Origin: Escherichia coli
Lineage (GTDB): Bacteria; Pseudomonadota; Gammaproteobacteria; Enterobacterales; Enterobacteriaceae
Direction: 5' to 3' (one strand)
Assembly: GCF_003018255.1 (NCBI RefSeq)
Contig: NZ_CP027440.1
DNA: 64,000 nucleotides
Shown: piece by piece, positions 45,889-53,400 of the stretch
Numbering within the stretch: position 1 is the stretch's first letter
Layout of the letters: every line of letters begins with the position of its first letter
Program-made: the position numbers and the translations under genes
Notes under the pieces: model-generated
The model's input: only the letters and a program-made list of their open reading frames with translations
What the model was told of the DNA's origin: nothing
Database searches by the model: none

Positions 45889-46539
45889 TCAGAAAATGCG
45901 CTCCTGATGCACCCATACCGCAGCTTCCACGCGAGACTTTAGCTTCATTTTCTTCAGCATGTGCTTGACGTGAACTTTTACTGTGCTTTCGGTGATGTCC
46001 AGGCGGCGGGCAATCATCTTGTTCGGCAAACCCTGGGCAATTAGCTTGAGAATATCGCGCTCGCGTGGGGTTAACTGGTTAACATCGCGCTCAGTAGTGG
46101 CACGGTTAGCGCGCAAGCTGGCGGCCAGAACAGGCGTTAATGCTTCGCTTAATACCATTTCGCCAGCAGCTGCCTGATGTAACGCTTTCAGCAGATCTTC
46201 CGGTTCCATATCTTTTAACAGATAGCCATCCGCGCCGCGTTTCAGTGCGGTGACCACATCTTCTTCATGGTTAGAGACGCTGAATACCACAATGCGCCCG
46301 GAGAGGGACTTTTCGCGCAGTTTATCCAGCGTTTCCAGACCGTTCATGCCGGGCATATTGAGATCTAACAGGATCAGATCGGGATCAAGAGACTCCGCCA
46401 GTTCAATACCCTGTTCGCCATTACTCGCTTCGCCAACCACGGTGATATCTGGTGCCATACTGATAAGCTGTTTTACGCCAGTTCGCAGCATCGGGTGATC
46501 GTCAATCAGCAGGATAGTAGCCGGTTCCTGATTACTCAT
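45889..46539 (-). CDS. narL: NarL, nitrate/nitrite response regulator
   Basis: 216 aa from [25 protein letters not shown]; receiver domain plus LuxR-type HTH; start overlaps the narX stop. Confidence 0.95.
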
Positions 46540-48328
46540 GGGTATCTCCTTGGACGTCTGTGAAAGTTTTTTCGGGAATAAAGGTGACCACCACTTCGGT
46601 GCCACCTGATTCACGACGGCGGACGCGGCAATCGCCCCGTAAACTTTGCGCACGGTCGCGCATTATTATCATGCCGTAGTGATTGCTGCGGATGGCATTT
46701 TCAGGCACGCCGCAGCCGTTATCCTGGACGGTCAGTTTGACCTGATTATCGTTTTGCGCCACTGTCACCACGACCTCACTCGCTTGCGAATGTTTGAGGG
46801 CGTTACTTAATGCCTCACGGGCAATTTGCAACAGATGGATTGCCTGATGCGAAGGCACCAGACGAGGCGGCAATTGATAATCCAGCTTCACCGGGAAGCC
46901 AAACCTGGCGCTGTACTCTTCGCAACTCGCCTCCAGCGCCGGACGTAATCCAGGCTCGGTGAGCTGCAAGCGGAATGTGGTGAGCAATTCACGCAACTGC
47001 GCCCAGGATGCATTCAGTTCGTTACGGATCTGACTTAACAGTTCGCGGCTGCTTTCTGGCAGCGCATCGCCCTGCATCTGTAAACAACTCACCTGCATCT
47101 TCATGCAAGAGAGAGATTGGGCAATAGAATCATGCAGTTCGCGCGCAATGGTGGCACGCTCTTCCATCACGATCAACTGTTGCTGACGTTCCTGATGGCG
47201 ATCCAGCGCAAGCGTGGCGGTGAGTTGTTCAACCAGGGTATCCACCAGTTGTTGTTGATCATGACTAAGATGACGCCCCTGCGGCAGGGTTGCCAGCAAA
47301 ATACCGTACTGCGTATGAGAGTCAGCCAGCCGCCACTTCAGGGTTGTGCCGCGATCGCCAACGGGGAGTACACCGCGCGGGCAGAGCTGACAGCCTTTAT
47401 CATCGCAGGTCATATCTGGCTGGCAGGTAAACTCCTGATGATTCTCTTCATCATCAGTGTCATACACCCGCAGTTCGATATCACGTAGCAGGGTTAAATT
47501 CTGTAAGCCGTTGAGTACAGGTGACAAGCGTTCACACAGCGGGGCGCGGGAATGCAAACGGCGGTTAGCCTGCCATAAAAAAGAGAGGATCTGATTTTTA
47601 TGCTCCAGCCCGGCGGTTTTCTCCTGAACCCGCTGCTCAAGTACGGCATAACTTTCGGCCAGTTCTGCAGACATATTGTTCAACGCAGTTCCAAGCATCG
47701 CCATTTCGTTGCGCCCGCTGATGTTCGCGCGTTGGGTAAAATCGCGATGACTGACGGCACTCGCCATTGCCAGCAATTGCCGCCACGGTTGTAGCAGTCG
47801 CGCCCGCAACCAGATAATAGTGAACACCAGTAAAAGTGCCATAAATACCGCCATTACCCGATGGACCAGTACCACTGTCTCAATGCGCATTTCCGTGGTG
47901 CGGTCAAAACCAGATACCAGCTGATCAAGCCCGGCAACAAACTGGCTGACATCCGCTGACACCGTTTCGCGGTTTTGAGCACGCATCAGCGTAGGGATCA
48001 GTTCATTACGCCAGTAATCTTGTAAACCCTGTAATTGCGCCAGTTGTCCGTCTCGTTCTGCTGCTCGGGTTAACTCGGCGCTAAATGCCGTTTGTTCCAT
48101 TTCTTTAATTAAGGGCTTGTCTTTCTCGCTTAATGGCACTGCTGCCAACAGACGGTAACTTTGCATGCGCAGCGATCCCGCTTTGTTGATCGCATGGGCG
48201 CTGCCCTGAACGCCTTGCACTAGCCAGCCAGAAACTGCCATCCCTGCCAGTCCAATAGCAGTAGAAAGCAACACAATAAGCGCAACCTGATTAACCAGGG
48301 TGAGCGGAGAGAGACAACGTTTAAGCAT
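46532..48328 (-). CDS. narX: NarX, nitrate/nitrite sensor histidine kinase
   Basis: 598-aa ORF with periplasmic P-box region, HAMP domain and histidine kinase core (ELHDSIAQ). Confidence 0.95.
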
Positions 48329-48593
48329 GTAAACCTCTTCCTTCAGGCTTTAAATGAGCAATAACCTTAATGAATGTGACGATACATTCTGGAATGGCAG
48401 TATTCTCGGCTATTGGCTGAAGTATACCCATACCCGGAAAGAGTTACTCCTTATTTGCCGTGTGGTTAGTCGCTTTACATCGGTAAGGGTAGGGATTTTA
48501 CAGCACCGTGAAAAATCTCATAATTTTTATGAAATCACTGTACTCACTATGGATAATGATAAATATCAATGATAGATAAAGTTATCTTATCGT

Positions 48594-48607
48594 TTGATTT
48601 ACATCAA
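48594..48607 (+). promoter_or_regulatory. FNR box in the narK promoter
   Basis: TTGAT-TTAC-ATCAA is a perfect match to the FNR consensus TTGAT-N4-ATCAA, about 60 nt upstream of the narK start. Confidence 0.75.
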
Positions 48608-48666
48608 ATTGCCTTTAGCTACAGACACTAAGGTGGCAGACATCGAAACGAGTATCAGAGGTGTCT

Positions 48667-50058
48667 ATGAGTCACTCATCCGCCCCCGAAAGGGCTACTG
48701 GAGCTGTCATTACAGATTGGCGACCGGAAGATCCTGCGTTCTGGCAACAACGCGGTCAACGTATTGCCAGCCGCAACCTGTGGATTTCCGTTCCCTGTCT
48801 GTTGCTGGCGTTTTGCGTATGGATGTTGTTCAGCGCTGTTGCGGTGAACTTACCGAAAGTCGGTTTTAATTTTACGACCGATCAGCTATTTATGTTGACT
48901 GCGCTGCCTTCGGTTTCTGGCGCGTTATTACGTGTTCCATACTCCTTTATGGTTCCTATCTTTGGTGGTCGTCGCTGGACGGCGTTCAGCACCGGTATTC
49001 TGATTATTCCTTGCGTCTGGCTGGGTTTTGCCGTGCAGGATACCTCCACGCCTTATAGCGTCTTCATCATCATTTCTCTGCTGTGCGGCTTTGCTGGCGC
49101 GAACTTCGCATCCAGTATGGCAAACATCAGCTTCTTCTTTCCGAAACAGAAGCAGGGTGGCGCGCTGGGTCTGAATGGTGGTCTGGGCAACATGGGCGTC
49201 AGCGTCATGCAGTTGGTTGCTCCGCTGGTGGTATCACTGTCGATTTTCGCAGTATTTGGTAGCCAGGGCGTCAAACAGCCGGATGGGACTGAGCTGTATC
49301 TGGCGAATGCGTCCTGGATATGGGTGCCGTTCCTTGCCATCTTCACCATTGCGGCGTGGTTTGGCATGAACGATCTTGCTACCTCGAAAGCCTCCATCAA
49401 GGAGCAGTTGCCGGTACTCAAACGGGGTCATCTGTGGATTATGAGCCTGCTGTATCTGGCAACCTTCGGCTCCTTCATCGGCTTCTCCGCGGGCTTTGCG
49501 ATGCTGTCAAAAACGCAGTTCCCGGATGTTCAGATTCTGCAATACGCTTTCTTCGGGCCGTTTATTGGTGCGCTGGCGCGTTCTGCAGGTGGTGCATTAT
49601 CTGACCGTCTGGGCGGAACTCGTGTCACTCTGGTGAACTTTATCCTGATGGCGATTTTCAGCGGCCTGCTGTTCCTGACCTTACCGACTGACGGACAGGG
49701 CGGAAGCTTCATGGCGTTCTTCGCAGTCTTCCTGGCGCTGTTCCTGACCGCTGGGCTGGGTAGTGGTTCCACTTTCCAGATGATTTCCGTGATCTTCCGT
49801 AAACTGACAATGGATCGTGTGAAAGCAGAAGGGGGTTCTGACGAACGTGCGATGCGTGAAGCGGCAACCGACACGGCGGCGGCGCTGGGTTTCATCTCTG
49901 CGATTGGCGCGATTGGTGGCTTCTTTATCCCGAAAGCGTTTGGTAGCTCGCTGGCATTAACGGGTTCGCCAGTCGGCGCAATGAAAGTATTTTTGATTTT
50001 CTATATCGCCTGCGTGGTGATTACCTGGGCGGTATATGGTCGGCATTCTAAAAAATAA
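48667..50058 (+). CDS. narK: NarK, nitrate/nitrite antiporter (MFS)
   Basis: 463 aa from MSHSSAPERATGAVITDWRPEDPAFWQQRGQR; 12-TM MFS protein. Confidence 0.95.
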   Translation: MSHSSAPERATGAVITDWRPEDPAFWQQRGQRIASRNLWISVPCLLLAFCVWMLFSAVAVNLPKVGFNFTTDQLFMLTALPSVSGALLRVPYSFMVPIFGGRRWTAFSTGILIIPCVWLGFAVQDTSTPYSVFIIISLLCGFAGANFASSMANISFFFPKQKQGGALGLNGGLGNMGVSVMQLVAPLVVSLSIFAVFGSQGVKQPDGTELYLANASWIWVPFLAIFTIAAWFGMNDLATSKASIKEQLPVLKRGHLWIMSLLYLATFGSFIGFSAGFAMLSKTQFPDVQILQYAFFGPFIGALARSAGGALSDRLGGTRVTLVNFILMAIFSGLLFLTLPTDGQGGSFMAFFAVFLALFLTAGLGSGSTFQMISVIFRKLTMDRVKAEGGSDERAMREAATDTAAALGFISAIGAIGGFFIPKAFGSSLALTGSPVGAMKVFLIFYIACVVITWAVYGRHSKK

Positions 50059-50182
50059 ATCGTAATATTTGATTATCCTTTGCGCGGCATGATGTCGCGC
50101 TTTTTTTATGCGTCATTTAGTTACAACATACTAATGTTGTATGGCTTATTTCGCTGGATTTCATTAAGAGTCATTAATATGT

Positions 50183-50212
50183 TACCCATGGGGAATACTC
50201 CTTAATACCCAT
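50183..50212 (+). promoter_or_regulatory. NarL heptamer region of the narG upstream activating sequence
   Basis: Two TACCCAT heptamers (50183..50189 and 50206..50212) about 200 nt upstream of the FNR box, consistent with the known NarL site architecture at narG. Confidence 0.6.
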
Positions 50213-50345
50213 CTGCATAAAAATCTTAATAGTTTAAATAACTACAGGTATAAAACGTCTTAATTTACAGCGTGTTATGCCGTAACCGCTAATTATCCTA
50301 AAGGGGTATCTTAGGAATTTACTTTATTTTTCATCCCCATCACTC

Positions 50346-50359
50346 TTGATCGTTATCAA
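50346..50359 (+). promoter_or_regulatory. FNR box in the narG promoter
   Basis: TTGAT-CGTT-ATCAA is a perfect FNR consensus, about 95 nt upstream of the narG start codon. Confidence 0.8.
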
Positions 50360-50450
50360 TTCTCACGCTGTTTCAGAGCGTTACCTTGCCCTTAAACATT
50401 AGCAATGTCGATTTATCAGAGGGCCGACAGGCTCCCACAGGAGAAAACCG

Positions 50451-53400
50451 ATGAGTAAATTCCTGGACCGGTTTCGCTACTTCAAACAGAAGGGTGAAAC
50501 CTTTGCCGATGGGCATGGCCAGCTTCTCAATACCAACCGTGACTGGGAGGATGGATATCGCCAGCGTTGGCAGCATGACAAAATCGTCCGCTCTACCCAC
50601 GGGGTAAACTGCACCGGCTCCTGCAGCTGGAAAATCTACGTCAAAAACGGTCTGGTGACCTGGGAAACCCAGCAGACTGACTATCCGCGTACTCGCCCGG
50701 ACCTGCCAAACCATGAACCTCGCGGCTGCCCGCGCGGTGCCAGCTACTCCTGGTATCTTTACAGCGCCAACCGCCTGAAATACCCAATGATGCGCAAACG
50801 CCTGATGAAAATGTGGCGTGAAGCGAAGGCGCTGCATAGCGATCCGGTTGAGGCATGGGCTTCTATCATTGAAGACGCCGATAAAGCGAAAAGCTTTAAG
50901 CAGGCGCGTGGACGCGGTGGTTTTGTTCGTTCTTCCTGGCAGGAAGTGAATGAACTGATCGCCGCCTCTAACGTTTACACCATCAAAAACTACGGCCCGG
51001 ACCGCGTCGCTGGCTTCTCGCCAATTCCGGCAATGTCGATGGTTTCTTACGCATCGGGTGCACGCTATCTTTCGCTGATTGGCGGTACTTGCTTAAGCTT
51101 CTACGACTGGTACTGCGACCTGCCTCCTGCGTCTCCGCAAACCTGGGGCGAGCAAACTGACGTACCGGAATCTGCTGACTGGTACAACTCCAGCTACATC
51201 ATCGCCTGGGGTTCAAACGTGCCGCAGACGCGTACCCCGGATGCTCACTTCTTTACTGAAGTGCGTTACAAAGGCACCAAAACTGTTGCCGTCACACCAG
51301 ACTACGCTGAAATCGCCAAACTGTGCGATCTGTGGCTGGCACCGAAACAGGGCACCGATGCGGCAATGGCGCTGGCGATGGGCCACGTAATGCTGCGTGA
51401 ATTCCACCTCGACAACCCAAGCCAGTATTTCACCGACTATGTGCGCCGCTACACCGACATGCCGATGCTGGTGATGCTGGAAGAGCGCGACGGTTACTAC
51501 GCTGCGGGTCGTATGCTGCGCGCTGCTGATCTGGTGGATGCGCTGGGCCAGGAAAACAATCCGGAATGGAAAACTGTCGCCTTTAATACCAATGGCGAAA
51601 TGGTTGCGCCGAACGGTTCTATTGGCTTCCGCTGGGGCGAGAAGGGCAAATGGAATCTTGAGCAGCGCGACGGCAAAACTGGCGAAGAAACCGAGCTGCA
51701 ACTGAGCCTGCTGGGTAGCCAGGATGAGATCGCTGAGGTGGGCTTCCCGTACTTTGGTGGCGATGGCACGGAACACTTCAACAAAGTGGAACTGGAAAAC
51801 GTGCTGCTGCATAAGCTGCCGGTGAAACGCCTGCAACTGGCTGATGGCAGCACCGCCCTGGTGACCACCGTTTATGATCTGACGCTGGCAAACTACGGTC
51901 TGGAACGTGGCCTGAACGACGTTAACTGTGCAACCAGCTATGACGATGTGAAAGCTTACACCCCTGCCTGGGCAGAGCAGATTACCGGCGTTTCTCGCAG
52001 CCAGATTATTCGCATCGCCCGTGAATTTGCCGATAACGCTGATAAAACGCACGGTCGTTCGATGATTATCGTCGGCGCTGGGCTGAACCACTGGTATCAC
52101 CTGGACATGAACTATCGTGGTCTGATCAACATGCTGATTTTCTGCGGTTGTGTCGGTCAGAGCGGGGGCGGCTGGGCGCACTATGTAGGTCAGGAAAAAC
52201 TGCGTCCGCAAACCGGCTGGCAGCCGCTGGCGTTTGCCCTCGACTGGCAGCGTCCGGCGCGTCACATGAACAGTACCTCTTATTTCTATAACCACTCCAG
52301 CCAGTGGCGTTATGAAACCGTGACTGCGGAAGAACTGCTGTCGCCGATGGCGGATAAATCTCGCTATACCGGACACTTGATCGACTTTAACGTCCGTGCA
52401 GAACGCATGGGCTGGCTGCCGTCTGCGCCGCAGTTAGGCACTAACCCGCTGACTATCGCTCGCGAAGCAGAAAAAGCCGGGATGAATCCGGTGGACTATA
52501 CGGTGAAATCCCTGAAAGAGGGTTCTATCCGTTTCGCTGCGGAACAGCCGGAAAACGGTAAAAACCACCCGCGTAATCTGTTCATCTGGCGTTCTAACCT
52601 GCTCGGTTCTTCCGGTAAAGGTCATGAGTTTATGCTCAAGTACCTGCTGGGGACGGAGCACGGTATCCAGGGCAAAGACCTGGGGCAGCAGGGCGGCGTG
52701 AAGCCGGAAGAAGTGGACTGGCAGGACAACGGTCTGGAAGGCAAGCTGGATCTGGTGGTGACGCTGGACTTCCGTCTGTCGAGCACCTGTCTCTATTCCG
52801 ACATCATTTTGCCGACGGCGACCTGGTACGAAAAAGACGATATGAATACTTCGGATATGCATCCGTTTATTCACCCGCTGTCTGCGGCGGTCGATCCGGC
52901 CTGGGAAGCGAAAAGCGACTGGGAAATCTACAAAGCCATCGCGAAGAAATTCTCCGAAGTGTGCGTTGGTCATCTGGGTAAAGAAACTGACATCGTCACG
53001 CTGCCTATCCAGCACGACTCTGCCGCTGAACTGGCGCAACCGCTGGATGTGAAAGACTGGAAAAAAGGCGAATGCGACCTGATCCCAGGTAAAACTGCAC
53101 CGCACATTATGGTCGTAGAGCGCGATTATCCAGCAACTTACGAACGCTTTACCTCTATCGGCCCGCTGATGGAGAAAATCGGTAACGGCGGTAAAGGGAT
53201 TGCCTGGAACACCCAGAGCGAGATGGATCTGCTGCGTAAGCTCAACTACACCAAAGCGGAAGGTCCGGCAAAAGGCCAGCCGATGCTCAATACCGCAATT
53301 GATGCGGCAGAGATGATCCTGACGCTGGCACCGGAAACCAATGGTCAGGTAGCTGTAAAAGCCTGGGCTGCCCTGAGCGAGTTTACCGGCCGTGACCATA

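Follow-up and report, generated by a model that had tools for sequence, protein, structure and literature searches.

The window analysed here is a stretch of 64,000 nucleotides from Escherichia coli (contig NZ_CP027440.1 of assembly GCF_003018255.1), and its positions 48329..48666 form the intergenic region between the divergently transcribed genes narX and narK. The narX gene (- strand, 46532..48328, 598 aa) has its start at 48328, and narK (+ strand, 463 aa) begins with an ATG at 48667..48669. The segment highlighted by the initial annotation (48330..48666) is essentially the whole of this region. In MG1655 the same two genes lie on both sides of it, and 5415 of 5426 complete E. coli genomes match a 601-bp query across the region, with narX/narK annotation in every match listed. 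This is the narK control region of E. coli, a well-studied nitrate transporter promoter. Compared with narKp of E. coli K-12, it has the same locus, the same FNR box sequence and coordinate and the same NarL heptamers, and its 341-bp intergenic sequence is identical to that of MG1655 save for two G-to-A changes, at 48534 and 48553. Coordinates of the window are converted to U00096.3 with an offset of +1,229,290. The narKp annotation of K-12 is reportedly drawn from Kolesnikow et al. 1992, Bonnefoy & DeMoss 1992, Li et al. 1994 and Myers et al. 2013, the first three of which enter our analysis via secondary tables.

Other kinds of features were also considered for this DNA. An Rfam scan of 48200..50500 yielded no intergenic match and only two matches at chance level, located inside or just after narK. 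A 72-aa open reading frame at 48354..48572 was discounted because the region carries indels and has diverged to saturation across genera. As a separate observation, 13 of the ~5420 matches to the narX-narK region in the E. coli collection are on plasmid-labelled records, and some genomes carry up to three copies.

The FNR binding site of the region is the palindrome TTGATTTACATCAA at 48594..48607, which is composed of the half-sites TTGAT and ATCAA. It matches the consensus TTGAT-N4-ATCAA at 10 of 10 positions, and thus the perfect box that the initial annotation had reported upstream of narK is verified in both position and sequence. Perfect matches to this consensus are rare in the window (two observed versus 0.06 expected), and none of 100 shuffled sequences reached two. 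The other perfect site is the box of narG at 50346..50359, and both sites are therefore situated upstream of nitrate-respiration genes. Supplementary file 6 of Myers et al. 2013 (PMC3688515) lists TTGATTTACATCAA for narX/narK at U00096.2 position 1277107, which corresponds to position 48594 of the window. Its PWM score there (17.06) is the joint highest, with the identical 14-mer of nirB, among the entries examined (PMC3688515). For narK, Table 1 of the same study reports a ChIP-seq peak of FNR, a single site at -41.5 and activation that is anaerobic and depends on FNR, and a supplementary table gives a value of 0.068, which we take as expression in an fnr mutant relative to wild type (PMC3688515). 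In Salmonella, mutants of fnr or narL lack narK mRNA and its 3'-UTR small RNA NarS, whereas narP mutants retain both (PMC7038943).

A search for NarK in one genome per species yielded 80 loci, 46 of which have narX divergently upstream with an intergenic distance of 300-375 bp. These narX-linked loci represent about 25 genera, and every one of the 46 carries a perfect TTGAT-N4-ATCAA. Once distances were adjusted for four matches that begin inside narK, the box was located 71-75 nt before the narK ATG in 42 of these loci, the exceptions being three Rahnella (95 nt) and one Limnobaculum (~100 nt). In an alignment of 22 genera, column identity is 0.98 for the box and 0.65 for the whole region. 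The narU-like paralogue loci (L041-L071; roughly 70-77% identity, without narX upstream) exhibit no FNR-like site of at least 9/10 within 260 bp upstream. Thus, the perfect box is specific to the narX-linked copy.

A palindromic site has no orientation of its own, and in a divergent region such a box might act on another promoter, for example that of narX, if it is not simply a chance palindrome. We give this reading almost no credence and regard it as effectively refuted, given that the chance expectation noted above applies to the full 64 kb and that the box is conserved in all 46 loci. Its position is fixed relative to the -10 element and ATG of narK, but varies by about 30 bp relative to narX, whose start codon is 266 bp away in the window. 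Furthermore, the published ChIP and expression data assign the box to narK (PMC3688515). The reading of TTGATTTACATCAA as the FNR site of narK is retained below.

The -10 hexamer TAAGGT (+ strand, 48629..48634) is located 21 nt after the FNR box. Although it matches only 3 of 6 consensus positions, the hexamer is conserved, with a column identity of 0.88, invariant first and last T nucleotides and an A retained at 90% or more. At precisely this 21-nt distance from the box, 40 of the 46 loci have the pattern TAnnnT, and this geometry places the transcription start at 48641-48643. By combining the published value of -41.5 with the position of the -10 element, the start of narK can be assigned to the A at 48642 (+ strand), which would create a leader of 25 nt and center the box (48600.5) at -41.5. 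A start at 48641, which corresponds to -40.5, fits the -10 element equally well. From the literature and the promoter geometry, we conclude that the FNR site is centred at -41.5 of narK and overlaps the -35 position. A Shine-Dalgarno sequence, GAGG (+ strand, 48658..48661), precedes the narK ATG, and the block ATCAGAGGTGTCTATG in this segment (48658..48669) exhibits a column identity of 0.96.

The nirB promoter of MG1655, a Class II FNR promoter co-regulated by NarL and NarP, carries the same TTGATTTACATCAA, the same 21-nt spacer length and the same TAAGGT, and it is listed at -41.5. This match provides independent support for the -41.5 geometry of narK. The site had been proposed at the outset to act at about -41.5, and both the literature value and the conserved -10 geometry, which equals that of nirB, are compatible with this placement.

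The narK core promoter is weak, with no usable -35 element and a weak -10 element, and a scan with the sigma-70 consensus found nothing promoter-like there. Upstream, the same scan yielded two + strand matches versus 1.0 expected by chance, which is close to expectation. These matches, TTTACA-16-CATAAT (48497..48524) and ATGAAA-17-GATAAT (48529..48557), were both rejected as the narK promoter because their hexamers are unconserved outside Escherichia, and the latter exists only through the substitution at 48553. Within E. coli, 4553 of 5408 matching records carry an exact copy of a 60-mer comprising the box, spacer and -10 element, and the sampled variants alter the spacer while box and -10 element are unchanged.

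NarL sites for narK (b1223) number ten in RegulonDB/CoryneRegNet, where Li et al. 1994 is given as their source, and they include TACCCAT and TACTCCT (PMC2718512 supplements). One of the ten, CACTGTA, was suggested for removal by MotifAdjuster (PMC2718512). The two distal heptamers are both annotated and perfect matches to TACYYMT on the + strand: TACCCAT resides at 48425..48431 (centre -214; its end overlaps a conserved TACCC at 48431..48435), and TACTCCT follows 20 bp later at 48445..48451 (centre -194). Three annotated - strand heptamers come next, given here in + strand spelling: GTGGTTA at 48462..48468 (centre -177), ATCGGTA at 48479..48485 (centre -160; TACCGAT, one mismatch) and AAGGGTA at 48485..48491 (centre -154; TACCCTT, one mismatch). 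Closer to the box are the annotated heptamers TACTCAC (+ strand, 48541..48547, centre -98), ATGGATA (48549..48555, centre -90; reverse complement TATCCAT, and ATGGGTA in K-12), ATAAATA (48559..48565, centre -80), which overlaps an FNR-like site discussed below, and ATAGATA (- strand, 48572..48578, centre -67; reverse complement TATCTAT), which is weakly conserved, with a column identity of 0.50.

The interval 48418-48578 includes two perfect matches to TACYYMT (48425 and 48445) and eight more with one mismatch. Across the whole window, TACYYMT is not significantly enriched (38 observed versus 29.4 expected), so that the pattern alone is weak evidence, and we have not used motif counts as support. 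The case for TACCCAT and TACTCCT is based instead on cross-genus conservation and on the database list. Both had been described as NarL-like sites near 48425..48455 in the initial annotation, and both prove to be annotated as well as conserved.

Heptamers at 48425, 48445 and 48541 are conserved across genera, with column identities of 0.99 for TACCCAT, 0.88 for TACTCCT (kept as TACYYCT) and 0.90 for TACTCAC. Their distances to the box are likewise preserved. The start of TACCCA[T/C] precedes that of the box by 169-170 bp in 41 of the 46 loci; for TACYYCT the distance is 149 bp in 40 loci and 149-151 bp in all 46, and for TACTCAC it is 53 bp in 42. Both distal heptamers are found at the fixed 169/149 bp distances in 40 of 46 loci. 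In contrast, ~54 bp between the distal heptamers and the box (48452..48505) have diverged to ~53% identity (column identity 0.53), and both the leader and the narX side contain indels. That the length from distal heptamers to box is kept while the sequence drifts suggests a constraint on helical phase, spacing or looping. The poor conservation of this same spacer implies that the heptamers within 48462..48491 are Escherichia-specific or less constrained.

One of the two substitutions relative to K-12 affects an annotated heptamer. The G-to-A change at 48553 converts ATGGGTA (TACCCAT) to ATGGATA (TATCCAT) and also creates the -10-like hexamer GATAAT. It is a common natural allele: in the complete-genome E. 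coli collection, 1011 records, ATCC 11775 among them, match exactly the haplotype with A at both 48534 and 48553. Because position 48553 is also variable between genera, the altered heptamer ATGGATA is probably tolerated.

The arrangement of NarL sites distinguishes narK from nirB. At nirB, a single 7-2-7 site at -69.5 serves NarL and NarP, which counter repression by IHF and Fis, whereas narK has dispersed heptamers out to -214. A search of the narK region for TACYYMT-NN-AKRRGTA identified no 7-2-7 site, and the sole inverted pair, TACTCAC-T-ATGGATA, has a 1-bp spacer (7-1-7). This lack of a 7-2-7 site is consistent with control by NarL without NarP, and with the report from Salmonella that narK is unaffected by NarP.

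A second FNR-like site, ATGATAAATATCAA, is present at 48556..48569, with 9 of 10 consensus positions and a centre at -79.5. Conceivably, tandem FNR dimers activate narK, such that FNR bound at 48556..48569 contributes to or modulates transcription; we consider this possible but doubtful. The site is rare, being one of only four 9/10 matches in the 64 kb, and its distance upstream from the main box is exactly 38 bp. Curated databases presumably list an FNR site at -79.5 for narK. In the Myers et al. 2013 data, the centre of the FNR ChIP-seq peak (1,277,082 in U00096.2) falls between the main box and this site. However, that study (PMC3688515) counts a single FNR site for narK. Moreover, the site is poorly conserved: E. 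coli and E. albertii alone have it at 9/10, and it drops to 6/10 in Escherichia sp. MOD1 and is at most 7/10 elsewhere. It also overlaps annotated NarL heptamers, and therefore NarL may instead account for its being conserved within E. coli. If functional, the -79.5 site would appear to be a recent addition seen only in Escherichia. Activation through the single perfect box at -41.5 remains the reading that we prefer.

Between the distal and proximal heptamers is a conserved block, GTGAAAAAyCnC (48508..48519), followed by a T-tract to 48529 and centred near -125, which is a candidate site for IHF. Column identity for 48507..48529 is 0.84 in the 22-genus alignment. In the Myers et al. 2013 supplement, the FNR site of narX/narK is marked for overlap with a region from IHF ChIP-chip (PMC3688515). 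The IHF consensus WATCAANNNNTTR, with at most two mismatches allowed, has no match in the block at 48508..48519, and the nearest match is at -108 with two mismatches. Despite the poor agreement with the consensus, the block near -125 is probably an IHF bending site, and the conserved spacing of 169 bp from heptamer to box fits a phased or looped geometry.

The distal heptamers might have the divergent narXL promoter as their main or additional target and thereby mediate NarL autoregulation. A conserved block, TATTCTC (48401..48407), reads GAGAAT on the - strand (48407..48402), and this is a candidate narXL -10 element. TACCCAT is 17 bp upstream of GAGAAT on the - strand and would thus occupy the -35 position, as at yeaR, a Class II NarL promoter with a NarL site at -43.5 (PMC10853779). 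Five of the seven positions of the block (T, A, T, T and T of TATTnTC) are invariant in 22 genera, which include the would-be A2, A4, A5 and T6 of a - strand -10 element, and the 17-bp distance to TACCCAT is fixed. In addition, narX needs a promoter in this region, and the remaining narX-proximal DNA is poorly conserved. We nevertheless judge a narXL role for the heptamers, though plausible, to be rather unlikely. Literature searches on the narX promoter yielded no narX start site or footprint, the sigma-70 scan had no - strand match, and TATTCT, the + strand reading, resembles a -10 element just as well. The strict 169-bp interval to the FNR box also argues for heptamers that work with the narK promoter.

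These two roles of the distal heptamers are compatible rather than mutually exclusive. As a tentative proposal, in which we place low confidence, the pair at 48425..48451 could be a shared bidirectional element, which would activate narK by looping from about -200 and, from the -35/-55 positions of GAGAAT, would drive autoregulation of narXL. If this were true, a bent, length-constrained loop would account for the 169-bp spacing in 40 of the 46 loci. Action of the distal heptamers on narK is the reading carried forward here.

The narGHJI promoter, located 1.7 kb downstream, provides a second comparison. It resembles narK in having a perfect FNR box at -41.5 (TTGATCGTTATCAA, 50346..50359) and in carrying the heptamers TACCCAT and TACTCCT about 140-163 bp upstream of this box. 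In the published model for narG, IHF is required (PMC4549865). Within the narG control region (50183..50359), three distal heptamers are clustered (TACCCAT, TACTCCT and TACCCAT at 50183, 50196 and 50206) and one more, TACCCCT, is on the - strand at 50302..50308 and precedes the box by 44 bp. The spacer sequence and -10 element of narG are different from those of narK. Unlike narG, narK exhibits a distal pair with 20-bp spacing, a cluster from -100 to -65 and the extra FNR-like site. We also observed that narK has an intrinsic terminator at 50082..50100 with a T-run, and that the narS ncRNA annotated in RefSeq MG1655 (1279337..1279520; window 50047..50230) runs ~120 nt past this terminator and into the distal NarL heptamers of narG. 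The annotated 3' end of narS looks too long.

The narK promoter almost certainly belongs to the FNR-dependent sigma-70 promoters of Class II, with phospho-NarL as co-activator. Under anoxia, a dimer of [4Fe-4S] FNR would bind the palindrome at 48594..48607, 41.5 bp upstream of a start at ~48642 and over the -35 position, and would recruit RNA polymerase to a weak core promoter that offers TAAGGT but no usable -35 element. When nitrate is present, NarX would phosphorylate NarL, which would then occupy the heptamers near -214/-194 and from -100 to -65 and raise promoter activity. A bend near -125, probably formed by IHF, may draw the distal NarL sites towards the complex of FNR and polymerase, in the way proposed for narG. 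The products would be narK mRNA, which encodes a nitrate/nitrite antiporter, and its 3'-UTR small RNA NarS. FNR occupancy, the -41.5 position and the dependence on FNR and NarL are taken from the literature, whereas motif identities, positions and conservation were established from the sequence and its comparison. Looping mediated by IHF and contacts between NarL and polymerase are steps that we infer.

The feature is already known, and its architecture is as expected, deeply conserved and ordinary. In locus, box and heptamers, the initial reading of a narK promoter with expected architecture agrees with published and database annotation. That reading was correct but incomplete, as it lacked three elements: the FNR-like site at -79.5, seven other NarL heptamers on the database list and the probable IHF block. 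As such, narK serves as a positive control, for which a call made from sequence alone was accurate, and it has little value as a discovery. What the present comparison would add to existing knowledge is a quantification of the rigid geometry, evidence that the -79.5 site is confined to Escherichia and a candidate -10 element for narX. The geometry of the box, the 21-nt spacing and the 169/149/53-bp offsets, shared by most of the 46 loci, offers quantitative support for an activation complex that is geometry-dependent and probably looped. Through this promoter, nitrate transport is coupled to anoxia via FNR and to nitrate via NarX-NarL, and the same promoter also drives the NarS small RNA.
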